Source: Cenarchaeum sp.
Lineage (GTDB): Archaea > Thermoproteota > Nitrososphaeria > Nitrososphaerales > Nitrosopumilaceae
DNA length: 64,000 bases
NCBI GenBank assembly: GCA_965212015.1
Contig: OZ243037.1
Coordinates: 640,001-704,000, forward strand
Direction: 5' to 3'
The stretch's first letter is position 1, and each line of letters begins with the position of its first letter. A program made the translations under genes and the position numbers. Below are positions 2 to 20,615 of this stretch, piece by piece. Below the pieces are notes generated by a model, which searched no databases, was not told the origin of the DNA, and saw nothing but the letters and a program-made list of their open reading frames with translations.

Positions 2-223
2 ACTAGAAATAAAAATCCACAATTGCCATTAAACAAAGAAGATGTAAGCTATTTAAAATCTGGTCTTAAATTAAATGAACATTATCTTCAAAAATATGAT
101 ACGTGGGTCATTAGCAATATCGAAAATCGAGAAGAAGATCTGCGCATACTGGCATCTAAAGTCTGGGATTTAACAAGCTATATAGACTCTGCAGAAAAAC
201 CAATTAATACGAGTGATAAATGA
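2..223 (+). CDS. 3' end of a hypothetical protein (open to window edge)
   Basis: Frame open from position 2 to TGA at 221-223; AT-rich like neighbours. Confidence 0.5.
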   Translation, partial: TRNKNPQLPLNKEDVSYLKSGLKLNEHYLQKYDTWVISNIENREEDLRILASKVWDLTSYIDSAEKPINTSDK

Positions 224-251
224 TATGATTACGAGGCTAAAAATAATTTAG

Positions 252-407
252 GATAGAATATCTCCCATATGTGTTGGCGCTATTTTAAAATCCCTCCGTA
301 ATAATGACTTTGATGCATACTCTGCTATTTATGTAGTCATTGATAATTCACTGCAAGCCAAATCAAAAGGGATCAAGATTAAATTTAAAATGGATATACT
401 TAGATGA
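252..407 (+). pseudogene. Truncated relic of a GHKL/MORC ATPase N-terminus (paralogue of 2109-3845, inverted)
   Basis: Translates RISPICVGAILKSLRNNDFDAYSAIYVVIDNSLQAKSKGIKIKFKMDILR*, aligning to KISPIRVGAAIKSLRNNDFDAYSAIYEVVDNSIQAESKEIRIKFEMDTLG; no start codon, in-frame TAG just upstream. Confidence 0.85.
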
Positions 408-482
408 ATTTATTCCGTGTACTGTATGTCATTTGTAATTTATTCCAAATATAATATTTTGAGCTAATATTTCTACTCAAAA

Positions 483-3845: not shown

Positions 3846-3936
3846 TTCTATACAGGGGTAATTATATGCTCTTTTTAATCTATTGGCATATCAGGGCTTG
3901 TATTCATGTACAGTCTTCTTGGGAATCTGAGATCTA

Positions 3937-4902: not shown

Positions 4903-4903
4903 C

Positions 4904-5677
4904 TCATTTGTAATCCGGAAATCGGTCTTTTATGTATCTGACTTGATCTTTCACGTCTAGCTTTTCCGCCCTTGGGGACGGGCCCCTCACAAAGAATGTC
5001 TTTTCTTTTCCGCAAAGCCATAGGGGACTATTTGCAGGCAATACCTGTATTATGCAGACGGTCTTGTTATCAATAACCCGAAATTTCATCTCTAGTCTGC
5101 TAGTGACAAACACGCGATCCTCCAGTAGATTTTCCAATCTGTCCCTCATGTGATTTGCAAATGAATCCTCATAGTCGGAAAACCCGCCGAATTTTTTATC
5201 CCTGTCCAGACCCACAACAGTACCATTTGACTTGATACCAAGATACACAAATCCTCCCTTTTTGTCGTTCCCAAAAGAGCATATCGCTGTGGCAAATCTC
5301 TCCTGTACGGATTTTTTTATGCCATCTATTGCTTGTTTGCTCTCTGGGGCCTGTTTTTCCAATAATTTCCCTATACTTTCATCATACTGGTAAAATTCCT
5401 TGAATTCATTTTGCTTGTCTTCAGTATCCGGTATCTCTATTTTGCCTAGATCGACAAATCTCGGAGCAGCCGTTGCTTTCTGTACCTTGATGTTTTTGAC
5501 ACGTCCCACCTGCCCGTCCTCCAGCCTGACCTTGATTCCGTGTGGGTGGGTCTCGCTGGAGGTCAGAATCTCGGCCACCACACCGTCAGTCAGTCTGCCC
5601 GTCCCTTGGTTCTCCTTGGTCTCAATCGAGACCACACATCCGCCTTTGATCTGGTTTCTGATCGGAGTCTCCGGCAT
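4904..5677 (-). CDS. YwbE (DUF2196) - Schlafen/AlbA_2 fusion protein
   Basis: N-term TGRLTDGVVAEILT...HPHGIKVRLEDGQVGRV (YwbE); C-term EDKQNEFKE...ICSFGN..GGFVYLGI (AlbA_2). Confidence 0.8.
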   Translation of the reverse strand: MPETPIRNQIKGGCVVSIETKENQGTGRLTDGVVAEILTSSETHPHGIKVRLEDGQVGRVKNIKVQKATAAPRFVDLGKIEIPDTEDKQNEFKEFYQYDESIGKLLEKQAPESKQAIDGIKKSVQERFATAICSFGNDKKGGFVYLGIKSNGTVVGLDRDKKFGGFSDYEDSFANHMRDRLENLLEDRVFVTSRLEMKFRVIDNKTVCIIQVLPANSPLWLCGKEKTFFVRGPSPRAEKLDVKDQVRYIKDRFPDYK

Positions 5678-5713
5678 GGGTGTTACTTGGAGGCGTCACA
5701 ATTTAAGCCTGAT

Positions 5714-6157
5714 CTAGTCCGAATCCACCGGGATCTTCCTAAAGTCCAGCATCCCGAACCACTCTAGCTCATCAAAGAACATCCTGATTACGTCCATGAT
5801 CTTTCTTGTACTAGTCAAGGCGTACCAGGGACACCTATCCTCCTTTCTCTTGGCTATTACGGGGACCTCCGCCAGCCACACGTCCTCCTTTATCCGGGTG
5901 ATGTGTATTGCGTCCACCATGCGCGAGTTGCTAAACCCGATTGATTCCCTGTGCTCCCAGAGAAGTTTTTCCGTCTCCCGTAAAGCCTTCTCCCGGTCTA
6001 TGGTGACCATGTCCTTGTTCCCTATGGTCTCAAATTTGCCGTACTTCCAGTATATGATCTTTCTTGGAACGATATTCGCGGTACGGGTCATTATCCTGTA
6101 GAGATCCTCGTGGGGGTGTATGCTGGAGGTGGTAAGGGATCTCTCGGGCTTGTCCAT
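5714..6157 (-). CDS. Hypothetical protein
   Basis: 147 aa ATG ORF, TTTAAA upstream, collinear with downstream genes. Confidence 0.6.
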   Translation of the reverse strand: MDKPERSLTTSSIHPHEDLYRIMTRTANIVPRKIIYWKYGKFETIGNKDMVTIDREKALRETEKLLWEHRESIGFSNSRMVDAIHITRIKEDVWLAEVPVIAKRKEDRCPWYALTSTRKIMDVIRMFFDELEWFGMLDFRKIPVDSD

Positions 6158-6245: not shown

Positions 6246-6725
6246 GTGAAAATCTCCTTCAGGGTGTGCGGCAAGCCTCCGAAAAAATCAAGCGGGGGCT
6301 CGATTTGGACCGGCGAGTCAAGATCCGAACAGGTCCTAGATCTGCGCAGATCCGCGGCAGGTGAAAAAAAGAGGATAAACATGGAGTATCCTATGAGGGG
6401 CCCGCTAAGGATCAAACTGACAATACACTCCTCACAGGACATCACGAAAAAGGAGGATACCCACAATTACATCGGGGATCTGGACTCGCTTGTGGCCGGG
6501 GTGTGCGATGCCCTGAGGAAGGCAGATGAGAACGTCACGCCTCACGTGCGGTTCAACCAATACAAGGAAGTCGACCCGAAAAAACCCCTCATAATCGAGG
6601 ACGACTCGAACATAACTGCAATCGAGGCCAGCAAGATCAAGGACACCGAGGAATACTATACGGTGACAGTTGAGGAGATCCGGAATTCTAGCATGTGCGG
6701 ATTCCTGAAAAAAATCCGGGGCTGA
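6246..6725 (+). CDS. RusA-like Holliday junction resolvase/endonuclease
   Basis: G-x-P-x-x-K N-terminus, GDLDSLVAGVCDAL and IIEDDSNI acidic motifs characteristic of RusA. Confidence 0.65.
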   Translation: MKISFRVCGKPPKKSSGGSIWTGESRSEQVLDLRRSAAGEKKRINMEYPMRGPLRIKLTIHSSQDITKKEDTHNYIGDLDSLVAGVCDALRKADENVTPHVRFNQYKEVDPKKPLIIEDDSNITAIEASKIKDTEEYYTVTVEEIRNSSMCGFLKKIRG

Positions 6726-6825
6726 CTGGCAGATCATGGTTTCGCCCGATCGATTCATACCTGAACGGCACGCCGTGTGTGAAAACTCCATAACCCATAA
6801 TAATTCCTGAACCGGATGTAACATA

Positions 6826-7149
6826 TTGGTAAAATCCAAGGAATCGATCAAGGAACGATACCGAAAATACCAGAGGGAATATCATAGGAAATATTATCAA
6901 AAGCCGGAGACAAAGGAATGGGTTAGAGAATACAACCAGAGGCCGGAGGTAAAGGAAAGGCTCAGGAAATACAACCAAAGGCCGGAGGTAAAGGAAAAGC
7001 TCAGGAAATACAACCAGAGATCGGAGGTAAAGGAGCGGATCCGAAAATACCATCAGAGGCCGGAGGTAAAGGCGCGTAAAAGATATTTGGCAAAGATGAG
7101 GAGGATCCGTGGGAAATCCAAGACAAAGACCCGTAGAAAATCATACTGA
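6826..7149 (+). CDS. Highly basic repeat protein (YNQRPEVKERLRK 13-aa repeats)
   Basis: TTG start; tandem 39-bp coding repeats; paralogue immediately downstream. Confidence 0.65.
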   Translation: MVKSKESIKERYRKYQREYHRKYYQKPETKEWVREYNQRPEVKERLRKYNQRPEVKEKLRKYNQRSEVKERIRKYHQRPEVKARKRYLAKMRRIRGKSKTKTRRKSY

Positions 7150-7229
7150 CAGAGCAATATGATCAAATCAACGCCCACCTTTCCACGCTCAAAGAAACTC
7201 ATAATAATTCCCAAACAAGACATCACACA

Positions 7230-7763
7230 TTGGCAAAATCCAGGGAATCGGCCAAAAAAAGACTGGAAAGGCTAAGGCGCCAGAGGGAGTATGCCCAGAG
7301 GCCAGAAGTGAAGAAAAGGCTCAGGAAATACCGCCAGAGGCCGGAGGTAAAGAAGCGGATCCAGAAATACCAGAAGGAATACAGCCAGAGGCCGGATGCG
7401 AAAAAGCGGAATCGGGAACGACAGAAAAAATATAGCAAGAGGCCCGAGGTGAAAAAGCGACACGCTGAAAACAGCCTGAAATACAGTCGAAGGCCGGAGG
7501 TAAAGAAGCGGGTCAGGAAACGCAATCAGAGGCCGGAGGTAAAGAAGAGGGTCAGGAAATACCACCAGAGGCCGGAGATGAAGAAACGTAAGGGAGAATA
7601 CATGAAGAAATACAACCAGAGGCCGGAGGTGAGGAAACGCAAAAGGAGATACGCCCAGAGGCTGGAGGTGAAGGAACGTAAGAGAGAATACCAGAAAAAA
7701 TATTATCAAAGGCCGGAGGTAAAGGCGCGTAGAAGACACTCAGCAAAGACCCGTGGGAAATAA
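7230..7763 (+). CDS. Highly basic repeat protein (about 10 RPEVK-type repeats)
   Basis: Paralogue of 6826-7149 with similar start, end and upstream CATAATAATTCC motif. Confidence 0.65.
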   Translation: MAKSRESAKKRLERLRRQREYAQRPEVKKRLRKYRQRPEVKKRIQKYQKEYSQRPDAKKRNRERQKKYSKRPEVKKRHAENSLKYSRRPEVKKRVRKRNQRPEVKKRVRKYHQRPEMKKRKGEYMKKYNQRPEVRKRKRRYAQRLEVKERKREYQKKYYQRPEVKARRRHSAKTRGK

Positions 7764-7773
7764 CTAGTCCGAT

Positions 7774-7920
7774 GATGGTCCTTGGGTAGTCGGGCTGGCC
7801 TGCCAGCCCGACGGTGTGGTGGTACGGGGCTCCCGTCAGGGAGCCCGGGGAAAAGACGTTGATGGAGCCGAGTGAGAGTTCGTTGTCGGGGGATTGTGAG
7901 GTAACTGCGAGCTGAAAATC
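7774..7920. repeat. Conserved hairpin-rich element, copy 1 of 5
   Basis: GTCGGGCTGG-cctg-CCAGCCCGAC stem (7789-7812), GGGCTCCC-gtca-GGGAGCCC stem (7827-7846), TGTGAGGTAACTGCGAG at 7895. Confidence 0.9.
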
Positions 7921-7937
7921 TGTTCGGAGAGTTTGAA

Positions 7938-8122
7938 AAAGGTGCAAAAGGGGTCAGTTAGTGACGCAAAATAAGTCACCGGAAAAGGAGTCAAAGGTGC
8001 AAAAGGGGTCAGTTAGTGACGGAAAATAAGTCACCGGAAAAGAAGTCAAAGGCGCTTTAGGGGTCGGAGAATTAGGGGTCGAAAGCGCCTTAGGGGTCGA
8101 CGATAGGCGCTTTAGGGGTCGG
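7938..8122. repeat. Iteron-like array 1 (55-bp period x2, then TTAGGGGTCG x4)
   Basis: GGTGCAAAAGGGGTC at 7941 and 7996; GTC motif spacing 22/33 bp. Confidence 0.85.
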
Positions 8123-8283
8123 ACATCGGTGGGGCTTGAACAGTTTTGATTTTTGTAATTGGATATCGTGTTGGTGATATGGAAAACCCAAGTGAACCTG
8201 ACTCCGCCTGACACAGGACTGTGATTGCCAAAGTAATACAGGCCGTATGATTCGAGGTCGGTCCGAGCCTACCCATCCTGTCA

Positions 8284-8443
8284 GGCCGGGACTCTGATTT
8301 GGGCGGTCGGGCCGGCTCACGGCCCGACGGTGTGATGGTACAAGGCTCCCAACGGGAGCCTTGGGAGATGACCTTGAAGGCCAGGATGAGGTCGTCATTG
8401 GAGGGTTTGTGAGGTAATGCAAGTCGAAAATCCGCGCGCGGGG
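8284..8443. repeat. Conserved hairpin-rich element, copy 2 (most diverged)
   Basis: GTCGGGCCG-gctca-CGGCCCGAC, GGCTCCC-aac-GGGAGCC, TGTGAGGTAA at 8408. Confidence 0.85.
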
Positions 8444-8459
8444 CGGAATCCCACGATGA

Positions 8460-8621
8460 AAATACATGGTTTCCATGGTTTTTTTACATGGATTCCATGT
8501 TCTGGAAAACAGGCAAAACATGGTTTCCGTGGCTTTTTTACATGGATTCCATGTTCTGGAAAACCTGTAAAACATGGTTTCCATGTTTTAAAAAACAGGC
8601 AAAACATGGATTACATGGTTT
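8460..8621. repeat. Iteron-like array 2 (palindromic ACATGGWTTCCATG units)
   Basis: Units at 8465, 8487, 8519, 8541, 8573, 8605 (spacing 22,32,22,32,32). Confidence 0.9.
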
Positions 8622-8786
8622 GACGCGGGTCTGAATGATTCCGGCCTCTACATGAATGACAAAAGACGTTAGGAAACAAGCCTCTGCCACTCGTTTATCC
8701 TGACCGTTTCCTGAATAGCTAGATTACATCTGGGGGCTAGGATGATCCTGATACCGTTGGCCAGTGCCAGCCTTGGTGTGTGGTTT

Positions 8787-8975
8787 GGGCCGGGACTCCG
8801 GCCCGGGATGATACTGGGCAAGAGGGCCGGCTCTGCCGGCCCGACGGTGTGGTGGAACGGGGCCTCCCGTCAGGGAGCCCCGGGAAAAAGACATTGAGAT
8901 TACTGAATCGTGGTTCGTCGTTGGGGGGTTTGTGAGGTAACTGCGAGTTGGAAATCCGCGCACGAGGCTTGAAAA
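8787..8975. repeat. Conserved hairpin-rich element, copy 3
   Basis: GGGCCGG-gact-CCGGCCC, GGGCCGGC-tct-GCCGGCCC, CTCCC-gtca-GGGAG, TGTGAGGTAACTGCGAG at 8931. Confidence 0.9.
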
Positions 8976-8977
8976 AT

Positions 8978-9135
8978 GGCACTTTTGCAGTCAAAAAAAT
9001 GTAGGCAAAAGCATTTTTGCAGTCAATTTTTGGCACTTTTGCAGTCAGTAAAAAGATGCCAAAAGCATTTTTGCAGTCAAAAAAATGCAGTCAAAAGCAC
9101 TTTTGCGGTCGAAAAACGACCCTTTTGCGGTCGAA
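8978..9135. repeat. Iteron-like array 3 (TTTTGCRGTC units)
   Basis: GCRGTC at 8987, 9019, 9041, 9073, 9105, 9127 (32,22,32,32,22), plus one off-lattice copy at 9087. Confidence 0.9.
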
Positions 9136-9233
9136 ATGGATCCGGATGACAGGACGGCTCAAAAGCCAGAGCAGATAACAGAGTCGACCTGCCATCAAGA
9201 TTGAGAGACTCCCCTTGGTGATGTGGGACCTGC

Positions 9234-9551
9234 GGGCCTTGGTGACCTGTACGGGCCTTGGTGACCTGTACGAGTGTGTACGGGCCTTGGTGACCTGTAC
9301 GAGTGTGTACGGGCCTTGGTGACCTGTACGGGCCTTGGTGACCTGTACGAGTGTGTACGGGCCTTGGTGACCTGTACGAGTGTGTACGGGCCTTGGTGAC
9401 CTGTACGAGTGTGTACGGGCCTTGGTGACCTGTACGAGTGTGTACGGGCCTTGGTGACCTGTACGAGTGTGTACGGGCCTTGGTGACCTGTACGAGTGTG
9501 TACGGGCCTTGGTGACCTGTACGAGTGTGTACGGGCCTTGGTGACCTGTAC
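9234..9551. repeat. Perfect tandem repeat: 29-bp unit GGGCCTTGGTGACCTGTACGAGTGTGTAC x9 plus three 19-bp truncated units
   Basis: Counted directly; units identical, no unique spacers. Confidence 0.95.
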
Positions 9552-9565
9552 GGACTCGTATCCTG

Positions 9566-9751
9566 TCCGGGCCGGGACTCCGGCCCGGATGGTTCTGGGC
9601 AAGAGGGCCGGCTCTGCCGGCCCGATGGTGTGGAGATGGGGGCTCCCGCCAGGGAGCCCGAGGAAGAGACGTTGAGATTACTGAATGGTTCGTCGTTTGT
9701 GGGTTTGTGAGGTAACTGCGAGTTGGAAATCCGCGCGCGGGGCTTGAAAAA
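9566..9751. repeat. Conserved hairpin-rich element, copy 4
   Basis: TCCGGGCCGG-gact-CCGGCCCGGA, GGGCCGGC-tct-GCCGGCCC, GGGCTCCC-gcca-GGGAGCCC, TGTGAGGTAACTGCGAG at 9706. Confidence 0.9.
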
Positions 9752-9899
9752 CGACCTCTTTGCGGTCGGTTTTCGACCCTTTTGCGGTCGAAAAAAAGAG
9801 GTCGAAAGCACTTTTGCGGTCGAAAAACGACCCTTTTGCGGTCGAAAAAAAGAGGTCGAAAGCACTTTTGCGGTCGAAAAGCGACCCTTTTGCGGTCGA
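9752..9899. repeat. Iteron-like array 4 (TTTGCGGTCG units, 54-bp period)
   Basis: GCGGTC at 9762, 9784, 9816, 9838, 9870, 9892 (22,32,22,32,22). Confidence 0.9.
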
Positions 9900-10127
9900 T
9901 ATGGTAGGATGACAGAGCGGCTCAGGAGTCGTAGTAAGTAACACCGAGTCGGCTGGCCATCAAGATTGGAACAGACCCATTGGTCATGTGGCCTGTGGCC
10001 AGCCTTGGTGATCTGTGGGAGTCGTGACTTTTCCAGATGGTTTTGGGTAAGATGACCGGCTCTGGCCGGCTTGGTGTGTGGTCCGGCCCGGATGATTCTA
10101 GGTAAGAGGGCCAGACCTGCCGGCCCG

Positions 10128-10265
10128 AGATGGTCCTTGGCTAGTCGGGCTGGCCTACAGCCCGACGGGATTTGGTATGAGGCTCCCGCCAGGGAGCCTT
10201 GGGGAAAAGACGTTGAGATTACTGAATCGTGGTTCGTCGTTTGTGGGTTTGTGAGGTAACTGCGA
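10128..10265. repeat. Conserved hairpin-rich element, copy 5 (degenerate partial modules upstream at ~10036-10128)
   Basis: GTCGGGCTG-gccta-CAGCCCGAC, GGCTCCC-gcca-GGGAGCC, TGTGAGGTAACTGCGA at 10250. Confidence 0.9.
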
Positions 10266-10309
10266 ACCTGCTGCTACAAACACGCGCGTGCGGGGGATAT
10301 TAGGCATAT

Positions 10310-10836
10310 TTTTGCGTACACTCAGTGTACCGTCACGTAGCACCCAGTGTACGCAAAAAGGGTACACTTGGTACACTTGGTGTACCCATACGTAGCACTT
10401 GGTGTACCCAGTGTACGCAAAAAGGGTACACTTGGTACACTTGGTGTACCCATACGTAGCACTTGGTGTACCCAGTGTACGCAAAAAGGGTACACTTGGT
10501 ACACTTGGTGTACCCATACGTAGCACTTGGTGTACCCAGTGTACGCAAAAAAATGCATTTAATGCATTCAAAAAATGCATTTAATGCACTCAGTGTACGC
10601 AAAAAAATGCATTTAATGCATTCAAAAAATGCATTTAATGCACTCAGTGTACGCAAAAAAATGCATTTAATGCATTCAAAAAATGCATTTAATGCACTCA
10701 GTGTACGCAAAAAAATGCATTTAATGCATTCAAAAAATGCACTTAATGCACTTTGTGCTACCTCACGTGGCTCTTTGTGCTACCCCCGCATAGCTCTTTG
10801 TGCTCTTTGTGCTACCCCACGTAGCTCTTTGTGTCC
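10310..10836. repeat. Composite iteron-like array 5: 64-bp x3 (10345-10536), 54-bp x4 (10537-10752), CTTTGTGCTAC units (10751-10836)
   Basis: CAGTGTACGC at 10345, 10409, 10473, 10537, 10591, 10645, 10699; ATGCATTTAATGCA at 22/32 spacing; CTTTGTG at 10751, 10773, 10805, 10827. Confidence 0.92.
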
Positions 10837-11056
10837 TTTTTACCCCAAGTTGATCTGTGGCAACAGATACAGAAATTAAAGATAAATTAAATCCCGTGCG
10901 GTCACACCAACATCTGTTTTCCCGCGCCCCAAAACCAATAATGATTTCCAAACAGGACTGGCAGAATCCAAGACATCAATCAAGTAAAGGCTCAGACGCC
11001 AGAGGCATGGCGTAAGAGTCATGCTCCTGTAACTTGTGCTCGTTGTACCGCCGACA

Positions 11057-12589
11057 CTAGGATTCCCGCGCGGTTGCCCGGCGCACAAGGAACCTGCCGT
11101 CGGAGAGCTCCGTGTCCACCTCCCACCCCTGGGCAGAATGCTCCAGCAGGCTCTGTTCATCCTCGATAATTCGGCTTTCATATGGGGCATCCGCCTTGGC
11201 AGGTCTTGCCGGTATTTCCTTGGGGACCGTGACAGAATCGTTTCGGATCAGGGAAGTCGGATCCATCCCGTACATCTTGGCCTGCTGCCGCCACAGGTTG
11301 AGTAGCATGTCCTTTTTGTTAGCGCCGTCGGCCTTGAGGTCCGTAGCCAGAAACGTCTGACTCTGCGCGTACGCGCGCCTCATGTCCTCCGTCATCTGCT
11401 CTGTGAGCCTGCCCTTGTTGGTGGTGTATCGAGCCTCCATGTCGCCCTTGTGTCCCATAAAGAATTGTCTGTATGCGTGCGTCATGCACCCGTGGCTTTC
11501 GGCCATGAGCATCTGCGTGTCAAAGTATGCCCTCAGGGCGTACGGGCGGATCTTCATCACGCCCCAGATCGTCCTCCGTATGCTCTCCGATATGGCCGGC
11601 GTGGTCAGAAATAATGTGTCCGATTTCTTACGCTGCCCCCTTTCCTGGTATCCATTGTTGAACGTAATGAGCGGCGAGTCCGGTTCCAGTATATCGCCGT
11701 GCGCGATACGCTGCCGCAGATATCCCAAAAGATACTCACATCCCTGCTTTGTCAGGAACGTAAAGTACTTGTTTTTGGTCTTGCTAAGCTGGGCGCGGAC
11801 GACAATCATTGCCGGCATCTTTTCAAACGACACCCTGTCGCCGTCGATGCGCAGTTCCGGCAGATCCGAGAGTTTCAGCCCGTCACCCTTGTCAGACGTG
11901 CCCATCACCTGGGGGCGGATGCCGGAGAATGCCATCATGCCTACGATGAGCTTTGTGCGCGGGGATCCTGCGCCTAGAATCTGATCAAGTTGCTCCTGCG
12001 TGGGGACCTGCTCGTCCTCTATGCTTACCGCAATGCTGGCGTTTCTCACCTTTATTTTGCGCCTTATCTCGATGTGGTTGTATTCAAGCCACGACTTTAT
12101 CGCCTTTATCATCCCCTCTGTGTAGCCCGGCGCGTAATTCTGTTTTTCCATCCACGAGACGTGATCAAGCAGAATGTTCTCCATGTCCATTGGATTGTCG
12201 CGTCCTATGGTAACCAAGTTTGTAGGAGTCTTGTCAACCCTGTGGCAGAACAGATTGAGTCTGCGCAGCCTTACCTTTGAGTTGAGTATGCTAGAGCGCG
12301 CACAGTTTTCATACCAGCGTCTAACGTCATCATCCTTCAATAGTATAACTGGAGCTTGTGTCGTCACCTGATTCCACCGGATGTTATCAAAACGCGTTCC
12401 CCTATTTTTCCTTTTTGTTGTACGATTTTTTTCGTTAGGAATTATATTAGAGGAGTTTTCATGTTGTGTAATAACCGCGCGCTTTTTTTCCGGTTCCCTG
12501 TCAGGGCGCCGTGAGTTTGCACTCTTTATTTGTAGGCGAGGCTTGCAGTCGGCTTTTGAATTTACAGATTTTGTTTTCTGTTTTTTCAT
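11057..12589 (-). CDS. Tyrosine recombinase / site-specific integrase (start uncertain)
   Basis: SGIRP (catalytic R), RPYALRAYF, FMGH, ARYT (catalytic Y). Confidence 0.88.
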   Translation of the reverse strand: MKKQKTKSVNSKADCKPRLQIKSANSRRPDREPEKKRAVITQHENSSNIIPNEKNRTTKRKNRGTRFDNIRWNQVTTQAPVILLKDDDVRRWYENCARSSILNSKVRLRRLNLFCHRVDKTPTNLVTIGRDNPMDMENILLDHVSWMEKQNYAPGYTEGMIKAIKSWLEYNHIEIRRKIKVRNASIAVSIEDEQVPTQEQLDQILGAGSPRTKLIVGMMAFSGIRPQVMGTSDKGDGLKLSDLPELRIDGDRVSFEKMPAMIVVRAQLSKTKNKYFTFLTKQGCEYLLGYLRQRIAHGDILEPDSPLITFNNGYQERGQRKKSDTLFLTTPAISESIRRTIWGVMKIRPYALRAYFDTQMLMAESHGCMTHAYRQFFMGHKGDMEARYTTNKGRLTEQMTEDMRRAYAQSQTFLATDLKADGANKKDMLLNLWRQQAKMYGMDPTSLIRNDSVTVPKEIPARPAKADAPYESRIIEDEQSLLEHSAQGWEVDTELSDGRFLVRRATARES

Positions 12590-12703
12590 ATTGAAAGCGC
12601 CACTAGACCCGCTTCCACTGTGGGTTCGGGTCTTTCCCTGGCAAAATGCCCACAAACCGGTATCCGCGGGTGATTAACGCCCCCGCTTTTGCTGTATCGG
12701 CAA

Positions 12704-13966
12704 CTATTCTGTTTGGCCCGTCTTGGCGCTCATCAGCACCTCTAGTACCCGGTCAAGCTGTTCTGGCGTTGCCTTTTCCATGACGTTCTGTATGTGGTGT
12801 CTCTGCTCCAGTGTGGGGTCTATCTTGCTCTGATCCAGATACTCCTCGGATCGCATGAATCCCTCGCGCATCTCGGCTGTCAGGACCTCTGGCAGTATGC
12901 TCTTGTTTGTCGTGTACCTTGACTCCATGCTGCCCTTGTGTCCCATGAAAAAGACCCTAAAGTCGTGGGCTATCTTTCCCTTGGACTCTGCAATTAGCAG
13001 CTGCGTGTCAAAGTACGCCCTTAGAACGTATGGCCTCCATGTGAATCTGGGCCTGAACGTCCTTCTTACCAGATCACTTATTTGCTGCGTGGGCAGAAAC
13101 GCCTTTCTTGTATTGACGCCCCTGTGCGTCTTGTAGATATAGTCGGGCGCTACAATTGGCGCATTATCGTGCAGTGATTCCCCGTGAACCAGCCTGTCGT
13201 TCAGGTATGCCACGATGTGGCTCGTTGCGGACTGTGTCGAGAATGTAAAGTACTGGTGGCGTGCCTTTGAGAGCTCGCGCCGTACTATGATTCTGTTTGG
13301 AATTCTAACGCACTTTGCCTTTCCCTGATGGATTACCAGATCCGGCAGATCCTTCATTTGCAGTCCGTCCGTTCCGTTATGGTTTCCAATGACCTGTGGT
13401 CTGAGGCCCGACTTTGCCATCAGCGATATTATCACCGACTCGCGCAGGCCGGCCCTGCTGTATATCTCGGTCATCTCTTGCCCCTCCGGGACGCGTTCGT
13501 TTTGAAGCGTAGGGGTATAGTTTGTGGACGTCACCTTGATCTTTCTTCGTATCTCCACATCAAAGTGTCTCAGCCACGACTTTACCGTCTTGATCTGCTC
13601 CTCAATGTATCCCGGGGAATAATTCTTGGACTCCATCATGGTGATGTGATCCTCAAGCAAGTCCGTTGCAGTTCTCAGATCCCTAGTTGCCAGATCCGCC
13701 AGCTGTATCGGTGTCATCTGGTGAATCTCGCAGAACCGTCCCAGTCTCCTGAGACGCCCATCTGCTGTGATGGGGCTTCCGCGCGCCAGATTATCATGCC
13801 ATCTTTTGATGTCCGTGTTGGCCAACAGCCTTGATTTTTTTGTCTGTTTGGCAGTATCTTTTGCGTATGGTTTTGTTTTTTCCATATCTGTCAGCCTCTC
13901 GGTTACATTCTCGGTATGGTATGGTTTTGCTATTTGACTTTTGAGCGCGTTTTCCATTGTTATCAT
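12704..13966 (-). CDS. Tyrosine recombinase / site-specific integrase, paralogue of 11057-12589
   Basis: SGLRP, RPYVLRAYF, FMGH, SRYT motifs. Confidence 0.9.
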   Translation of the reverse strand: MITMENALKSQIAKPYHTENVTERLTDMEKTKPYAKDTAKQTKKSRLLANTDIKRWHDNLARGSPITADGRLRRLGRFCEIHQMTPIQLADLATRDLRTATDLLEDHITMMESKNYSPGYIEEQIKTVKSWLRHFDVEIRRKIKVTSTNYTPTLQNERVPEGQEMTEIYSRAGLRESVIISLMAKSGLRPQVIGNHNGTDGLQMKDLPDLVIHQGKAKCVRIPNRIIVRRELSKARHQYFTFSTQSATSHIVAYLNDRLVHGESLHDNAPIVAPDYIYKTHRGVNTRKAFLPTQQISDLVRRTFRPRFTWRPYVLRAYFDTQLLIAESKGKIAHDFRVFFMGHKGSMESRYTTNKSILPEVLTAEMREGFMRSEEYLDQSKIDPTLEQRHHIQNVMEKATPEQLDRVLEVLMSAKTGQTE

Positions 13967-14024
13967 GTTATCTGATACAAAGCTTTATTTAAAGATTTAC
14001 CATGTAGCATGATACAGGCTGATC

Positions 14025-14312
14025 ATGGGCATATTTATAAAAAAAATCCACGGGGCGGAATACCTGTATTTTCTGGCAGGGGATTCCCAGTATTTCCTGG
14101 GAAGAAAGGACGATCTGGAAAACCTGAACATTCAGAATCTGCGCAAGGCTGTGCGGATTGCAGACAGGAACTTTGATAGGATTTTTGTAAAATACATCCG
14201 GGATCTGCTGAAAAATGTCAGGTACATGCCCGATGATGAGAGGGCCCGGTACCTGTCCGCGCGGATTGCAAACTTGGATTCTGCGTTAAGACAGCTCAAA
14301 AATACGCGATAA
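14025..14312 (+). CDS. Hypothetical protein divergent from the integrases
   Basis: 95 aa ATG ORF; N-terminal IKKIHGAEYLY...FLG beta-rich motif; TTTATTTAAA in the shared intergenic region. Confidence 0.65.
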   Translation: MGIFIKKIHGAEYLYFLAGDSQYFLGRKDDLENLNIQNLRKAVRIADRNFDRIFVKYIRDLLKNVRYMPDDERARYLSARIANLDSALRQLKNTR

Positions 14313-14334
14313 TCATGCGATTTTTTGCAAAAAA

Positions 14335-14496
14335 TTATGACTCGTTGCCGGCCTTGAGGTAGAGCCTGTCTCCTTCCCTCTCAAAGACGATCACATCACC
14401 CTTTTCGAACCTGCAGCTGTTTCGGACCCGTTTCGGGATGGTAATCTGGTACTTGTATGATACCACGGTTGTGCCTAGGATTTCCTTGTTATTCAT
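14335..14496 (-). CDS. AbrB/MazE/SpoVT-family DNA-binding protein (53 aa, not in ORF track)
   Basis: MNNKEILGTTVVSYKYQITIPKRVRNSCRFEKGDVIVFEREGDRLYLKAGNES; QITIPKxVR...GD motif. Confidence 0.88.
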   Translation of the reverse strand: MNNKEILGTTVVSYKYQITIPKRVRNSCRFEKGDVIVFEREGDRLYLKAGNES

Positions 14497-14557: not shown

Positions 14558-16474
14558 TTGAAAAGTAAGGCAAAAAAGGCATCTCAGATGGCCAAATGTA
14601 CTACAATGCTAAAGTGGTATTTTCCACCAACAGGTGGTGGAGTAACTCAGGGATTTAATGATGGTTCACAAGAATTCTTCCGATCTAATGCATGGGAGCA
14701 GACCATAAGAGAGATAATTCAGAATTCACTTGATGCTGTAGATGATCGAAGAGACGGGCCAGTAAAAATAAACATCTCTGAAATAACGATACCTGCATCA
14801 GAGATAGGAGCCACTGATCTTGCTGGCCACATAAGCAAGGCTTTGGAACGCACTAGAAAACAAGAATCCACCACAGGGAGTAAATTTTACGAAAATGCAT
14901 TGAAGGTTTTAAATCAAAATGAGATCAAAATGCTTGCAATAACTGATACTAACACTACAGGTTTAGTGGATGAAAAATGGGATGCGCTGATATATGATGA
15001 AGGTACATCAAGTAAAGGTGGTATAAATGCAGCAGGAGGAAGTTTTGGCATTGGAAAAAATGCACCATATGTGGTTTCAGATTTAAAAACTGTATGTTAT
15101 TCCACACGATATCTAGGCAAGGGAAGAATTGAAAAGTTTATTGCTCGATGCAAGATTTCTGCACATGAGAATCCCGATGAATCTTCTAAAGAAATGCTAC
15201 AACACATAGGATTTGGAACTAAAACAAAATTAGCAAAAAATATTCGTCCTTTACCAACAGAAGGAAGTGACATTCATCAACTATTTCGTCTTGATGAATA
15301 TGGAAGTGGAATATTTATTATGGGATTTAATCCACAACTAAAAAATTGGATCAAAGTGGCCAAAAAATCTATAGCACATAATTTTTTTGTTGCAATACAT
15401 GAAAAGAAATTAGAAATTTATATAAATTCTGATCCGATAAACTATGAAACATTAGATGGTATATTTGAGGATGATCGTAAAAAAGAACCTACTCGTCACT
15501 ATTATCATATCATCCGTGATGATATTAAGAAAGAAATTGTAGAAGGAGATCTGGGAAAATTTACAGTACAAATAAATATTGATGATGAAGATGCACCAAA
15601 CCAAATTGCATATATAAACCGAAGAGGAATGATGGTAACTGACAAGCGTATTTTCGATGAAAATCCATTTTATACGGCAGTTGGAAAAGGTTGGGCCAAA
15701 TATGCAGTAGTAATTATGTCACATGATGATGCAACAGATATGAAAATACGTATGATGGAGCCGCCTAACCATCAATCAATCGAATACAAGCGCATCAATG
15801 ATCATAAAAAACGAGATTCTATGGAACGACAACTTCGTGTCATAAAAAATAAAATTACTGATATTATTAACAACGCAATTTCCGACAGTAATCATGAACA
15901 TGACATAAATCTATCAGAACTTGCAGACATATTGCCTTTTCCTGATGATTCAGGAAAAGAAGGTATTGAACAAAGTGAAAAAGATCAGTCTCTAGATCAT
16001 CATACTATAGAGTCTGGCACATCATCTCATATCGTAGATGATGATGGATTAGATTCAGGTAAAAAGTTAGGTGGGACCTCAGATACACATGGAAAGAATC
16101 ATAAATCTATTTCTGGTCGCAAAATAAGCAGTAAAGGAACACCAATTTTGCATCGTCAGCGAATTGTGCGCAGCAAGGATATACTCCGTGTTGCATTTAC
16201 ATCACGTCAAAATAATGGAAAACCAGTGTGCTTTGGCATCAAACCTGTAGGTGAAGAAAGAAAAAATGAAATCATGATTCCAATAACTTCGGCCCGTGTG
16301 GAAACACCATCGAATTTTACCATTAAAATGAATAACAATCGTATAACCATGACTCCAAAATATGATGAACGGGTTGTAATGGATCTAAAAATACCTCAAA
16401 CCAAGTCATATACAGGATATGAGATCATTGAAATAGTACAAAACAAAAAACCCTCAAAAGGTAATAAAAAATGA
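14558..16474 (+). CDS. GHKL-like ATPase domain protein
   Basis: REIIQNSLDA, ITDTNTTGL, GGSFGIGK motifs; first gene of an overlapping operon. Confidence 0.75.
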   Translation: MKSKAKKASQMAKCTTMLKWYFPPTGGGVTQGFNDGSQEFFRSNAWEQTIREIIQNSLDAVDDRRDGPVKINISEITIPASEIGATDLAGHISKALERTRKQESTTGSKFYENALKVLNQNEIKMLAITDTNTTGLVDEKWDALIYDEGTSSKGGINAAGGSFGIGKNAPYVVSDLKTVCYSTRYLGKGRIEKFIARCKISAHENPDESSKEMLQHIGFGTKTKLAKNIRPLPTEGSDIHQLFRLDEYGSGIFIMGFNPQLKNWIKVAKKSIAHNFFVAIHEKKLEIYINSDPINYETLDGIFEDDRKKEPTRHYYHIIRDDIKKEIVEGDLGKFTVQINIDDEDAPNQIAYINRRGMMVTDKRIFDENPFYTAVGKGWAKYAVVIMSHDDATDMKIRMMEPPNHQSIEYKRINDHKKRDSMERQLRVIKNKITDIINNAISDSNHEHDINLSELADILPFPDDSGKEGIEQSEKDQSLDHHTIESGTSSHIVDDDGLDSGKKLGGTSDTHGKNHKSISGRKISSKGTPILHRQRIVRSKDILRVAFTSRQNNGKPVCFGIKPVGEERKNEIMIPITSARVETPSNFTIKMNNNRITMTPKYDERVVMDLKIPQTKSYTGYEIIEIVQNKKPSKGNKK

Positions 16475-17307
16475 GTCATACGAACTTCTTGCTACCACAT
16501 CCAATAATTAAACCTGGAGGATTTGACTACAATGAAAATTGTCACTTTGACATAGAGATAAAACAGGCCACGACACTTGATGGAAATATCCACATTGAGA
16601 TATCATGTGATCTGTCCAGTTTTACTATAAATGATCTCATAAAGAAAGAAAAAGCAAAATTTTTTATTACTTTAAAATGTGTTAAAACCCATCAAAGAAT
16701 CACACATAGCTTTACAGAAACTTCCATGGTTTGGGATATTCCGATGTCTAACTGTGTCGATAAAATAAACATAACGCCATATGTGGCAACAACTGAGGAA
16801 ATACCAGCATTTTACTCCAAAGAACATGATGATGAAATTCAACAAATGATTCCTGATGGCGTAGATCTTCCGACAGGTGCCATTTTGGCAGTAGGAAAAT
16901 CACACGAAATCACGATTGATGCGATAGAAAAGATCCAAGCTGCCATCAAGATAATCCAAAATAAGGAATTGGAAGTAGGAACTTACGCCATAGACACCAG
17001 TGGCGATTATCTAGACATTCAAATGCATCCTAAAACACAAAACAGCATACGTAATATACACAACCAATCAGTAGAACTTTTGTATCCATCAATTTACCTG
17101 ACTGCCATCGAACAAGCCATACGTGATATGGAAAATTATAAAGATCGCAAATGGGCACAAGCTTTGCACAAAACTCTAGAAAAACACAATATTGAGATTG
17201 ATTATGATAAATTAAAGGAAGAAGCAAATAAGCATGCCCAGACAATACTGAACAAACCATTGGATCGCATCATACAATGGCACAATCGAGAGAATGAATA
17301 TGATTGA
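16471..17307 (+). CDS. Hypothetical protein
   Basis: 278 aa; stop/start overlaps with both neighbours as given in the ORF track. Confidence 0.8.
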   Translation: MSHTNFLLPHPIIKPGGFDYNENCHFDIEIKQATTLDGNIHIEISCDLSSFTINDLIKKEKAKFFITLKCVKTHQRITHSFTETSMVWDIPMSNCVDKINITPYVATTEEIPAFYSKEHDDEIQQMIPDGVDLPTGAILAVGKSHEITIDAIEKIQAAIKIIQNKELEVGTYAIDTSGDYLDIQMHPKTQNSIRNIHNQSVELLYPSIYLTAIEQAIRDMENYKDRKWAQALHKTLEKHNIEIDYDKLKEEANKHAQTILNKPLDRIIQWHNRENEYD

Positions 17308-18919
17308 AAGAGAACCCCTTTACAGATTTACCCATGAAGCATTTGAAATGTTATTCAAGAACTTTGAAAAACATCTTGAACATTACAAGAATCCTGATGC
17401 AGATTTTATCAAACTATTAACAGAGAATGGAATCAATAATTACAAAGAACCAATAATCGCGCATATCATTAATCCAATCAAACTTGAATTGACAGAGGGC
17501 AAACCATCCCATCTAGCAGACATTCAGGCACTCGATTTTTATAATTCCTTTGAAGGCATGACGCCTAGACTTGCGTCAGATCCACGTGTACTGGCATATC
17601 TGAATCATTTTTATTTTCACAAGTATGGCATTGCTCGCTGGCCGATATCTGCAAGCACAAAACCAGAACATATGCGTAGACATTGGCTTACGCGTAGCAC
17701 AGAAAATACTCACATATGGAAATCAAACATTTCGGGCAGAACCTGGTGGATTGCACATATGGCCATCAAGGCAGCAGAGTCTTCGGCCGGCACATTTGAT
17801 GCAAAGCAAGCATTGAAAAAATTTACAGAAGCTCCAGAATATTACCATCGCACCATGGAATATGCCATACTCAAAAATCATACGCTTATGGCAGAATTCA
17901 TCAGAGCATTACACAGGGAGGCAGAGGGTATAAACCGTGATGGATACATAGCCATGGCAAAGGAATTAAACCTGGAGGCTGGTGCAAGGCTAATTGATTC
18001 GCTGGACAGACAATACCTGCGTAAACTAGTACAGCGTGCAGCAGATCGTCAGATGTGCAATCCAAAATCTGTTACAAATCGCAAATATATTCATAATGTG
18101 AAAAAATTCAAAGTGTTGAGTTTGGGAGCTGGAGCACAGTCTACCGTGTTGGCGCTCATGGCAGAAGAGGGATGGAATGGACTTGAAAAACCAGATCTAG
18201 CTATATTTGCAGATACTCAATGGGAACCACCGAATGTATACGAGCACCTAGATTGGTTAGAAAAACAGCTATCGTATAAGGTAATTCGAGTATCTGCAGG
18301 AAACATACGTGAGAACATACTAAACGGTGTCAATTCAGATGGAGACAAATTTATGGACATACCGGCATTTTTAGTAAATCCTGATGGAAGTAAATCCGTG
18401 GCCCGCAGACAATGCACTACGCATTATAAAATAAGACCCATACACAAGGAGCTTAGAAAACACCTCGGCATACCAACCGGTCGACGTGCTCCAAAAGATA
18501 TTCAGGTAGAAATGTGGCTGGGTATTAGTGCAGATGAATCAAATAGAATTAAACCTAGCAGAGATGAATGGATCGACAATCGATATCCACTTATTGAAAA
18601 GGACATGACCCGGGCCAACATATACAATTGGTTTAGTGAGAGGTATCCGGATCGTCGTTTGCCTCGCAGTGCATGCGTAGGATGTCCTTACCACAACAAC
18701 ATGGAGTGGAAATGGATCAAAGAAAACGATCCGGATTCATTTGAGGAAGCAGTCAATGTTGACTGGTCGCTTCGTAATGTTCAAAAGACACGTGGTACAC
18801 TCAAAGGAGATGCGTACTTGCATCACACGCGCAAACAGTTAAACAAAGTGGATTTTAGCAAGACAGAAAATTATGATGACTATATGGCGAGCGAATGTGA
18901 GGGACTCTGTGGTGTCTGA
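17294..18919 (+). CDS. Fusion: DUF6339-like N-terminal domain + PAPS-reductase-like PP-loop domain with Cys clusters
   Basis: N-term TPRLASDPRVLAYLNH..ARWP..ISGRTWW; C-term LSLGAGAQST, AIFADTQWEP, RQCTTHYKI, WLGISADE, YPL, SACVGCP, ECEGLC. Confidence 0.75.
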   Translation: MNMIEREPLYRFTHEAFEMLFKNFEKHLEHYKNPDADFIKLLTENGINNYKEPIIAHIINPIKLELTEGKPSHLADIQALDFYNSFEGMTPRLASDPRVLAYLNHFYFHKYGIARWPISASTKPEHMRRHWLTRSTENTHIWKSNISGRTWWIAHMAIKAAESSAGTFDAKQALKKFTEAPEYYHRTMEYAILKNHTLMAEFIRALHREAEGINRDGYIAMAKELNLEAGARLIDSLDRQYLRKLVQRAADRQMCNPKSVTNRKYIHNVKKFKVLSLGAGAQSTVLALMAEEGWNGLEKPDLAIFADTQWEPPNVYEHLDWLEKQLSYKVIRVSAGNIRENILNGVNSDGDKFMDIPAFLVNPDGSKSVARRQCTTHYKIRPIHKELRKHLGIPTGRRAPKDIQVEMWLGISADESNRIKPSRDEWIDNRYPLIEKDMTRANIYNWFSERYPDRRLPRSACVGCPYHNNMEWKWIKENDPDSFEEAVNVDWSLRNVQKTRGTLKGDAYLHHTRKQLNKVDFSKTENYDDYMASECEGLCGV

Positions 18920-19241
18920 AATCGTATCACAACTAATGTTGAAAAAAATTCCTTTCGACTATGATTTTCACAATCATTTAAACAATTCTGGTGGATTGTA
19001 TTGCTTTTGGTTGCGCAATAGTTGTCTTTATGTGGGCATGAGTGAGGATCTAAAGAGGCGTATTGCACAACATAGCCATAAGGAAGATAATCCGGAATTG
19101 ATCAAATATTTCAGAACATGTCCAGATGAAATCGAAATATCCATAGTGTATCTAGATCTTACTGCAAACAAGCTCAGAAACATCGAATCAAGAGCCATAC
19201 TAGAATTACATCCAGTGGCCAATAGGCAAGGAATTTCTTAG
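18912..19241 (+). CDS. GIY-YIG nuclease
   Basis: GLYCFW...LYVGMS..LKRRIAQH...E...N motif; GTG overlaps upstream stop. Confidence 0.75.
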   Translation: MSEIVSQLMLKKIPFDYDFHNHLNNSGGLYCFWLRNSCLYVGMSEDLKRRIAQHSHKEDNPELIKYFRTCPDEIEISIVYLDLTANKLRNIESRAILELHPVANRQGIS

Positions 19242-19289
19242 GTATGATCATGCCATTTGAATATCTTTTACTTTCCATGGAGATATGTC

Positions 19290-20549
19290 ATGACTAGCTC
19301 ATATCCTGCACTACGAGGAAAATTTGGAAAGACAGATTATTTTTTGACTGCCATGCCAGTAGGAGAATTGATCAGTCGTGTCACATTCCCAATAGATCTT
19401 CCAGGCTGGGAGAACCGCTCCATAGAGGAGAGATTTCAGCGAAAGATCGATATAAGGAGAATTAGACGTGACATTGCTCCATATTTTGCAAATGATGAGA
19501 ATAGATTTTCTGGTGCACTGGTACTGGCAGTACTAAATTCTGATAAAATGATACTAGAATCATTACAAGATATTGCAGGAGTCAGTAATAATATCCCAAA
19601 ATTGTATAATAGTGTTATCGGTGATATGGGATTCCTGATAATGTCGGGAGATGAAGTTTTTGTTCCACTTGACGGACAGCATAGGGCTAAGGCATTCAAA
19701 CTTGCAATAGAAGGCTATAAGGATAGTAGTAAGGTAGCCCCATTAATACGGCCTAATCCAGATCTGGCAAAGGACAAAGTCGCTGTGATATTGGTTCGTT
19801 TTGACGACTTGATGTCCAGATATATATTCAACAAGATAAACCGATACGCAAAGCCTACCACCAAGGCTGACAAATTGATTACTGACGATGATAATGCCGT
19901 AGCAGTAATAACAAGGCAGATGATAAGTGACGGTGTCATTCCGGAACGTCTAGTGAACATAGACACAAACTCACTTAGCAAAACAATGCACGAATTTACA
20001 ACACTTTCTACGTTTTATGATGCCAACATGTACCTTCTGTCTGGATTACAGGTTGCCAGTATAGCAAATCCAGAAAAAATGTCCAAACCTGAAAGGGAGA
20101 TGCGATTAACAGAAGTAAGCGCAGAATGGAAGCGTTTGATATCTGGAATTGGTTTGTGGAAAAAAGCCCTCAAGGATCCATCCATAAAAGGGGATGACAT
20201 ACGCAAAAAGATCCGCAAGGAATACTTGCTAGGTAAACCCATCGGTCAGCTCTCGCTGGTAGGCGGATACGCCTTTACATGTCAGAGGCACAGGAATGAG
20301 GTGGATAGAGATCTCCTAATAAGACGACTAGATAAGATAGATTGGAGGGTGCGCACAAAGATGTGGTCAGGAGTGCTGATCCGTCAAAACGGCAGGATCA
20401 TGTCGGGAAGACCGACAGCAAAAAATGCCATCAAGTTCATAGCTTATCTCATAGGTGCTGAGCTGACAAAACTAGAGAAGGACAGCATTTTAGGATGGAT
20501 TTATGGCGACAGATGGAAAAAGAATGTTCTTCCAGAACCGATCAAATGA
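19290..20549 (+). CDS. DndB-family / DGQHR-domain protein
   Basis: ERFQRKID, PLDGQHR, IFNKINRYAKP motifs. Confidence 0.85.
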   Translation: MTSSYPALRGKFGKTDYFLTAMPVGELISRVTFPIDLPGWENRSIEERFQRKIDIRRIRRDIAPYFANDENRFSGALVLAVLNSDKMILESLQDIAGVSNNIPKLYNSVIGDMGFLIMSGDEVFVPLDGQHRAKAFKLAIEGYKDSSKVAPLIRPNPDLAKDKVAVILVRFDDLMSRYIFNKINRYAKPTTKADKLITDDDNAVAVITRQMISDGVIPERLVNIDTNSLSKTMHEFTTLSTFYDANMYLLSGLQVASIANPEKMSKPEREMRLTEVSAEWKRLISGIGLWKKALKDPSIKGDDIRKKIRKEYLLGKPIGQLSLVGGYAFTCQRHRNEVDRDLLIRRLDKIDWRVRTKMWSGVLIRQNGRIMSGRPTAKNAIKFIAYLIGAELTKLEKDSILGWIYGDRWKKNVLPEPIK

Positions 20550-20615
20550 TCGAAATACAAGTATTAAAATTCATAAGAATTTTATTGTACTGAAGAATCG
20601 TCAACAATTGTACCG

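Follow-up and report, generated by a model that had tools for sequence, protein, structure and literature searches.

Two tyrosine-recombinase genes beside a repeat array in Cenarchaeum: probable integrases of two defence islands stacked at one tRNA-Lys gene

Gene content of the recombinase locus

We analysed a stretch of 64,000 nucleotides (nt) from Cenarchaeum sp. (contig OZ243037.1, positions 640,001 to 704,000, forward strand), hereafter the window, which belongs to a complete genome made up of a single contig of 1.76 Mb (G000) with a 1457-bit match to an archaeal SSU rRNA model. The host is an archaeon of the ammonia-oxidising type. The region of interest, 11057..14496 of the window, carries two adjacent, co-oriented genes for full-length recombinases, which we call recA and recB, followed by a divergent gene for a protein of 95 amino acids (aa) and a gene for a 53-aa AbrB-like protein. 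On its other side, recA points towards an array of elements and tandem repeats, the last repeat of which ends near 10833, leaving 224 bp to the stop codon of recA. An original prediction, made from this arrangement, held that the two enzymes act together as a heteromeric recombinase similar to XerC/XerD, mobilising the island or inserting and excising cassettes of the array. Its description of the locus was accurate: the open reading frames (ORFs) are as claimed, and the array, placed at ~220 bp, is real and contains five element copies. The joint action that it proposed fared less well. Both genes do appear to be island integrases, one enzyme per island rather than one joint machinery: recA and recB most probably belong to two distinct defence islands that entered a single tRNA-Lys(ttt) gene in succession, each at its 3' end.

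A copy of the tRNA-Lys 3' end between the two genes

A tRNA scan detected no tRNA gene within the window. The tRNA-Lys(ttt) gene lies 11 kb to its left, on the plus strand (G000 628864-628938), and its 3'-terminal 14 nt, CCACTAGACCCGCT, recur on the same strand in the gap between recA and recB, 90 nt past the recB stop codon and 10 nt before the recA ATG, which is the likely true start of this gene (the intergenic gap is 114 bp). This attachment (att) site copy, att', and the tRNA end are the only two occurrences of the 14-mer in the genome. An extra copy of the own 3'-terminal 14-mer is found for only two of the 37 tRNAs of this genome, the second being a tRNA-Asp whose copy bounds another island.

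The 23.7 kb between tRNA-Lys(ttt) and att', which form direct repeats at its two ends, constitute island E1. From the tRNA onwards, it contains SspABCD, further defence-type genes, a RusA-like resolvase, ORFs with lysine/arginine-rich (K/R) repeats, the array and recA. Island E2 starts at att' with recB, the 95-aa gene and the AbrB gene, and continues with PDC-M33 A/B/C, GIY-YIG, DndB-like and HNH nuclease genes; the low-GC stretch to the right of recB ends at ~26.4 kb of the window, where ferritin and riboflavin genes resume. The coordinates of these features are given in Table 1.

Table 1. Features of the recombinase locus and of the two islands (window coordinates)
Feature	Position	Strand	Remarks
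recA, tyrosine-recombinase-type integrase of E1	11057..12589	-	510 aa from ATG at 12589; longest ORF reaches 12655
att'	12600..12613	+	exact 14-nt copy of the tRNA-Lys(ttt) 3' end; E1/E2 junction
recB, tyrosine-recombinase-type integrase of E2	12704..13966	-	420 aa
95-aa basic protein gene, divergent from recB	14025..14312	+	
53-aa AbrB/SpoVT (MazE-like) predicted DNA-binding protein	14335..14496	-	
Array, 5 units, part of E1	7746..10850	+	~200-nt conserved element and tandem repeats in each unit
Two K/R-rich ORFs, directly 5' of the array	6792..7763	+	13-aa (39-nt) repeats
RusA-like Holliday-junction resolvase gene of E1	6246..6725	+	phrog_140, E 5.7e-6
Further E1 cargo in the window	1..6157	-	helicase (PbeA-like), HATPase (MzaB-like), PLD-like, DUF2196/AlbA_2
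E2 cargo	14558..22037	+	PDC-M33 A/B/C candidate defence, GIY-YIG, DndB-like; HNH endonuclease on the minus strand

Since att' lies exactly between the two genes and each type of gene occurs alone at tRNA att sites in other genomes (see below), we read the locus as tRNA-Lys, island E1 (Ssp defence, array and recA), att', and island E2 (recB, the 95-aa gene and PDC-M33/DndB defence). E2 would have been the first to enter the 3' end of tRNA-Lys(ttt), with its integrase convergent to the tRNA end, as in the relatives of recB. E1 would have inserted later at the same att core, moving the tRNA gene 23.7 kb away and leaving the 14-nt att' between recB and recA. On this reading, the two genes are adjacent as a result of the placement of recA at the far end of E1 and of recB at the near end of E2. 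Each enzyme would presumably be active as a homo-oligomer on the att sites of its own element, with an Arg-Lys-Tyr-Arg-His-Tyr active site. This course of events is a reconstruction built on features that were observed directly, namely which genes are present, the fold and motifs of the proteins, the copies of the att site, how genes and tRNAs are arranged in relatives and the linkage of the array to one clade.

Relatives of recB and recA mostly occur singly, many at tRNA genes

With recB as query, matches were obtained in 27 of 61 sampled relatives, with none in the four belonging to the same genus. At E<=1e-30, matches occurred in 111 of 401 genomes of the family, a tally that takes in five unpublished genomes (G287, G105, G233, G285 and G255) used for no other result. 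Genomes are numbered here with the letter G, and loci (homologues or other features with their flanks) with the letter L. Among the 16 loci closest to recB (62-77% identity), six have an intact tRNA gene just past the stop codon and convergent with it (tRNA-Lys in L160, L163, L172 and L175, tRNA-Val in L171 and L173). Four more (L161, L162, L165 and L166) have a fragment of the tRNA-Lys end (<=2 mismatches in 16) 100-150 nt past the stop; in these, the tRNA is absent or displaced and the fragment is followed by other DNA and no recA-type gene. The 90 nt that separate the recB stop from att' in the window fit this distance. L160 has a second att copy, which lies 8.4 kb upstream and delimits an element of ~9.8 kb. 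Convergent tRNAs also accompany seven more distant loci of the recB clade (L042, L043, L045 and L047-L050), and a recA-type neighbour was found in none of the 16 closest loci nor of 22 further loci of relatives.

We reconstructed a tree from the sequences of >=320 aa among 97 homologues plus recA, recB, recC (a paralogue of recA described below) and the recB-like protein of genome G061. recA and recB fall in deep, separate clades with opposite gene-to-att geometries. The convergent-tRNA geometry is seen in 12 of the 23 homologues that fall in the recB clade and nowhere else in the tree, and recB nests in a subclade that targets tRNA-Lys. As its relatives sit convergent to a tRNA end just 3' of the gene, recB is predicted to be an ordinary island integrase with its att site just 3' of the gene, and att' would lie at the expected position. 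One of its relatives, L165, has three copies of the tRNA-Lys 3' end within 4.6 kb (11597, 13037 and 16039), with the tRNA 4.6 kb away, implying that small insertions devoid of integrase may have stacked between integrase and tRNA.

For recA, a search with the alignment of recA and recC as query, using one genome per species, retrieved 79 loci from Nitrososphaerota, Bathyarchaeia and Thermoplasmatota. recC, located elsewhere in the same genome (G000 1164947-1166359), aligns with recA over 455 aa, C-terminal extension included, at 65% identity. A tRNA-Lys(ctt) gene lies 220 nt upstream of recC in the same orientation; copies of the 3' end of this tRNA, of 15 and 17 nt, lie 21 and 30 kb away. A same-strand tRNA was similarly present <=700 nt upstream of the gene in 41 of the 79 loci; in six of the 79, the upstream sequence is too short to judge. 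A recB-type neighbour was present in one of the 79. The geometry of recA itself is the mirror image: a fragment of the att site, in antisense, lies shortly before the start of the gene, and the intact tRNA is found tens of kb beyond its 3' end. This layout recurs in L084 (tRNA-Lys at a distance of 38 kb, a 15-nt copy shortly before the gene and another copy between them), in L080 (tRNA-Val at a distance of 23.5 kb and a 13-nt copy placed in the same way) and in G061 (tRNA-Met and a 13-nt copy). No recB-type gene occurs near the recA-type gene in L084 and L080, so integrases of the recA type also stand alone. Judged by the refuting condition of the original prediction, homologues of these recombinases do use tRNA-type att sites.

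A second pair and the probable independence of the two islands

One further twin was found, in genome G061 (locus L087 and its flanks). Its layout is syntenic with that of the window: array units, a recA-like gene, att', a recB-like gene (54.6% protein identity to recB), a homologue of the 95-aa gene, a 7.5-kb insert, PDC-M33 A/B/C, GIY-YIG and DndB. Most proteins share 38-58% identity with their counterparts in the window, and the 95-aa homologue ~31%. The att copies match the local tRNA-Met, located 24.3 kb to the left of att', and not tRNA-Lys; a 17-nt copy of the tRNA-Met end directly after the DndB-like gene closes the recB-like island.

This twin is the strongest point against pure chance stacking of E1 on E2: the same pair of genes with syntenic E2 cargo at a different tRNA could reflect some coupling of the islands or of their integrases. 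Other observations also weigh against the reading as two stacked islands. A right-hand att copy closing E2 was not found in window 1-40000 with <=3 mismatches in 16 nt, and the flanks map to non-syntenic places in the four genomes of the same genus, which leaves no empty site for comparison. The region is present in public contigs of both studies from which four sequencing runs were taken, and no excision product was seen in these contigs, which are fragmentary, short and multi-strain and unable to show excision, expression or strand. Finally, the orientation of recA to the att core is inverted with respect to recC and the 41 canonical loci.

It might be argued from the G061 twin, with its matching gene order and with att copies that all match the local tRNA-Met, that E1 and E2 make up a single composite element, inherited and mobile as a whole and equipped with two integrases (e.g., one for integration and one for internal resolution), or that E1 is a hitch-hiker that specifically targets the tRNA/E2 junction. 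Two of the four islands with the recA geometry indeed abut a recB-type island. However, the other two (L084 and L080) have no recB-type gene, and the four close recB loci that retain an att fragment continue into other DNA with no recA-type gene. Moreover, an internal att' is what tandem insertion predicts, and twins are rare in the loci examined (1/79, 0/16 and 0/22). We consider a composite or hitch-hiking element unlikely and retain the successive insertion of two islands as the preferred explanation.

A recombinase family with a modified active-site motif

recA and recB align over 333 aa with 41% identity (E 6e-94) and share the motifs SG[IL]RPQV, LSK, RPY[AV]LRAYF, FMGHKG and [AS]RYTTN. 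In an alignment of 51 family members, residues R189, K234, Y313, R316 and Y351 (recB numbering) are invariant, and H343 is kept in at least 90%. The original prediction had pointed out a Tyr in place of the usual His of the HxxR box (His II), and the family bears this out in all 51 members (Y313 in recB, Y350 in recA). A profile alignment with hhalign (probability 96.3%) against a canonical 303-aa integrase of the same genome, which matches PF00589 at E 5.6e-4, placed Y313 on the His of HxLR and R189, R316, H343 and Y351 on the R, R, H and Y of that enzyme. The change appears to be a family trait, a variant of the motif rather than a defect. Some tyrosine recombinases tolerate other residues at the His II position.

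Sequence libraries barely detect this family. Neither recA nor recB matched any Pfam family, including Phage_integrase PF00589, even at E<=10; the NCBIfam XerA model gave weak matches to their N-terminal half (5e-5 and 3.4e-3), and a sequence-profile search of the PDB matched no recombinase. TALE-repeat proteins that came up in this PDB profile search with one alignment (A5) were discarded as an artefact of low-complexity N-terminal columns, as no stretch passed alone. The identity of the family was settled by the predicted structure of recB. The AlphaFold2 model, built on the 51 family members (predicted local distance difference test score, pLDDT, 85.8), had 36 Foldseek matches in the PDB at E<=1e-3, the best being XerA 5hxy (6.7e-7), with XerA 4a8e, IntI 2a3v, Cre, XerH, Tn1549 Int and lambda Int among the other top ones. 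The recA/recB family is thereby predicted to consist of tyrosine recombinases with a two-domain fold and a C-terminal catalytic domain. recA has, in addition, a K/R-rich N-terminal tail and a C-terminal extension, the latter shared with recC. A split integrase of the SSV type is not the case here, as both genes are intact and att' is intergenic.

A repeat array linked to the recA clade

The five ~200-nt element copies of the array start near 7746, 8275, 8778, 9560 and 10100, and the tandem repeats that follow them differ, with periods of 22/32/54/55/64, and 29 nt. Rfam yielded only sub-threshold chance matches in the array, and no family at gathering scores over the whole window; no credible ORF was found in the array units. 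The hairpins of the element keep their pairing by compensatory changes and have many G-U pairs on the plus strand, a pattern compatible with an RNA, or with a single strand that folds, in antisense orientation to the integrase. As repeat words, the blocks have short palindromes (such as CCATGG, ATGCAT, TACGTA, GGTCG..CGACC) spaced by runs of A, with a phase of 22/32/54/64 nt, which in our own reading might correspond to ~2, 3 and 5 helical turns.

The genome contains ~14 copies of the conserved element, eight of them in two arrays located directly 3' of recA and of recC, respectively, the second array spanning G000 1162730-1164890 (L035 6731-8891). A K/R-repeat ORF precedes both. Units W3-W5 with recA are colinear with units X1-X3 with recC at 69-80% nucleotide identity, and one repeat block, with 95% identity across the two arrays, is better conserved than the adjacent integrase genes (~69% at the nucleotide level). 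This colinearity indicates that the array travels with the recA/recC lineage as a block.

Beyond this genome, a covariance model of the element (R1; 11 copies, 156 positions and 26 pairs) detected elements in three loci, L088 (58 bits), L084 (48.6 bits) and L087 (30.1 bits, and a second hit with E 0.55). They lie 6-9 kb beyond the 3' end of the recA-clade genes, in all cases on the strand opposite the integrase. Both L087 elements directly adjoin tandem-repeat blocks, and the genomes that host these three loci contain 2-4 element copies each. In L115, a tRNA-Lys and a recA-clade integrase are followed by at least four units of 22-nt-period repeats and a conserved unit of ~250 nt; R1 had no match in L115 or its genome, and the likeness of these units to the window array was judged by eye alone. 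Tandem repeats directly follow the gene in L116/L117 (near-identical contigs) and L127. Arrays or elements accompany 9 of the 16 recA/recC-clade members, or 8 of 15 when the contigs L116 and L117 count as one, and no locus outside the clade, and a BLAST search with seven element copies had no match in the 22 or in the 79 loci. On these comparisons, the association is real and limited to the recA clade. The array is cargo of the recA-type element lineage, with no support as a substrate of a recA-recB pair. Regarding whether pairs of this kind accompany similar arrays elsewhere, the G061 twin does also hold element-plus-repeat units, but the link is with the recA clade only and twins are found at 1 of 79 loci.

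No sign was found that the recombinases insert and excise array cassettes, in an integron-like manner and by recA with or without recB, array and integrase being colinear between the two loci of this genome. This proposal draws some force from the position of arrays or elements 3' of 9/16 recA/recC-clade members and of none outside, from the hairpin-rich elements with their compensatory changes and from single cassettes of the same types scattered in the genome, as well as from contigs of two public runs that join element copies (8403>9701 and 9588>10131). However, these joints fall at homologous positions, were seen in metagenome contigs at 85% likeness and can be explained by paralogues or by homologous recombination. 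W3-W5 plus recA and X1-X3 plus recC speak for block inheritance and no shuffling, the integrase converges on the array and the cassettes have no ORF, and the one-strand G-U bias fits RNA as well as folded single-stranded DNA. We found no evidence of cassette traffic in the sequences compared and hold this activity to be improbable, even more so than a composite element.

Several further element copies and K/R-repeat genes are scattered in the genome. The K/R-rich proteins with 13-aa repeats form a multi-copy family with no Pfam match, present at window 6792-7763 and at four further sites (G000 325045-326103, 881199-881783, 1145946-1147334 and 1161736-1162545), with members on the immediate 5' side of the two arrays and next to a solitary copy of the element. 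An element copy at G000 324650 is flanked by an ATPase and AbrB pair similar to that of the tRNA-Asp(gtc) element described below. Solitary element-plus-repeat units lie just beyond tRNA-Val(tac) (G000 947064-947795; L039) and just beyond a tRNA-Lys(ctt) att copy (G000 1134214-1136477; L041/L062), the latter with an insertion sequence (DDE_Tnp_4 transposase) between. Both are oriented as in the recC island and have no integrase, and they may be remnants of similar elements.

As a more speculative proposal, which we put forward with considerable doubt, the recA/recC clade might represent an undescribed family of archaeal integrated elements with the 3' array as its hallmark. The array might be a functional module, working as non-coding RNAs or as iteron, centromere or decoy protein-binding arrays for the integrase or the K/R-repeat proteins, and these elements might preferentially stack onto recB-type islands.

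The 95-aa and AbrB-like proteins

Homologues of the 95-aa gene lie divergently and directly upstream of recB-type genes in 10 of the 16 close loci, in 4 of the 22 further loci and in G061; none was found beside a recA-type gene that has no recB-type neighbour. The protein is basic (isoelectric point 9.9), and in its model (pLDDT 94.2) a sheet of three strands leads into a helical hairpin. It had no Pfam, PHROG or PDB match, its best Foldseek hit in the PDB had E 0.43, and VIA wide returned only helical-hairpin look-alikes (Z<=6). An assignment to DUF6788 (an Atlas lead, 0.79) was dropped, as Pfam scans of 14 members gave no confirmation. From its linkage, the 95-aa protein is a plausible candidate for an excision/directionality or regulatory partner of recB. 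The 53-aa protein matches PF04014 (E 2.3e-7, 31.1 bits for a cut-off of 24.7) and TIGR01439 (E 2.1e-8, 33.7 bits for a cut-off of 28.3). A tblastn search found no AbrB homologue beside the recombinase homologues, and AbrB is not a conserved partner of either integrase.

Cargo of the islands and another tRNA-bound element

The SspABCD phosphorothioation genes are present as a complete set, which begins 220 nt past the tRNA-Lys(ttt) gene. It is followed by an HNH protein and a putative DUF262-like ORF, and then by the PbeA-like, MzaB-like, PLD-like and DUF2196/AlbA_2 genes, the whole (G000 629160-640000, L061 5160-16000, and window 1-5677) forming a dense, low-GC defence island. The RusA-like gene of E1 has a homologue in locus L127. 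In the E2 cargo, the order of the five-gene block made up of PDC-M33 A/B/C, GIY-YIG and DndB-like genes is kept between the window (14558-20549) and G061 (975326-981140), and the PDC-M33 C protein is a fusion of DUF6339 with a PAPS-reductase/SspD-like domain. Elsewhere in the genome, a further region, G000 744577-764333 (part of it in L038), is a putative integrated element as well: tRNA-Asp(gtc) marks one boundary, and a 14-nt copy of the 3' end of this tRNA, at a distance of 19.7 kb, marks the other. Within it lie a solitary array element (756481) and genes for an AbrB-like protein, for a TrwB/AAA-like ATPase of 1038 aa and for a helicase/NOV_C protein.

Comparison with known systems

Adjacent recombinase genes invite a heteromeric interpretation. 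That recA and recB are co-oriented and both intact, with one further twin in G061, might suggest a XerC/XerD-like or Tn554-like pair in which each enzyme binds half of a shared site, but we judge this very improbable, given that the pair is rare (1/79 recA-type and 0/16 plus 0/22 recB-type loci), that the two types form deep separate clades with opposite gene-to-att geometries, and that each alone flanks tRNA att sites in nearly all relatives, with att' lying between the two genes here. Such co-occurrence is not conserved, unlike in the obligate sets of XerC/XerD or Tn554/RIT. The intervening att copy points instead to defence islands piling up at one tRNA gene.

The solved structures of XerA (5hxy and 4a8e), IntI 2a3v, Cre, XerH, Tn1549 Int and lambda Int share with the predicted model the two-domain fold (Foldseek E 6.7e-7 to 1e-3) and the catalytic order. 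The window proteins differ from them in their low identity (9-18%), in YxxR for HxxR and in the extra N- and C-terminal regions of recA; they are encoded at tRNA att sites of islands and not at a chromosomal dif site. Integrons, for their part, also have a tyrosine recombinase beside an array of hairpin-forming repeated elements. However, intI diverges from attI and its cassettes are ORFs with attC, whereas recA converges on the array, the units carry tandem repeats in place of genes, array and integrase are inherited together in colinear order, and the enzyme belongs to a family associated with tRNA att sites.

The closest parallels are found among archaeal mobile elements. Passages of PMC6563490 and PMC8371274 describe thaumarchaeal and other archaeal integrated elements that target tRNAs, with att sites from 8 bp and a median of 17 bp, and report the tandem reuse of one site and defence genes as cargo. 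Phosphorothioation and restriction systems are likewise described as enriched in sponge-associated thaumarchaeal genomes in parts of PMC6790972 and PMC7848895. Element-plus-repeat arrays are not mentioned in the portions seen of PMC6563490, PMC6790972 and PMC7848895, supplements aside. The thaumarchaeal elements with XerC/XerD-like integrases, as portrayed in sections of Krupovic et al. 2019 (PMC6563490), resemble those of the window in their tRNA 3'-end targets, short att sites (13-17 nt here), site reuse and defence cargo; the window integrases differ from them by the absence of a PF00589 match and the Tyr for the first catalytic His, and the recA-type islands by their array. Tandem accretion of islands at one tRNA, as set out in passages of PMC8371274 and PMC6563490, is comparable in the intact tRNA at one end, the internal partial copies and the one integrase per element. 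Here, by contrast, the integrase genes stand side by side, a consequence of their positions at the far end of E1 and the near end of E2.

The locus is most probably a further example of the known stacking of tRNA-targeting islands. It adds a clade-specific array module and an integrase family invisible to Pfam that carries a Tyr-for-His motif. Two integrase clades with opposite att geometries and an active-site variant that Pfam does not recognise should aid the annotation of archaeal islands. The array has been narrowed down to one integrase clade and, therefore, experiments on it have a known starting element and enzyme.

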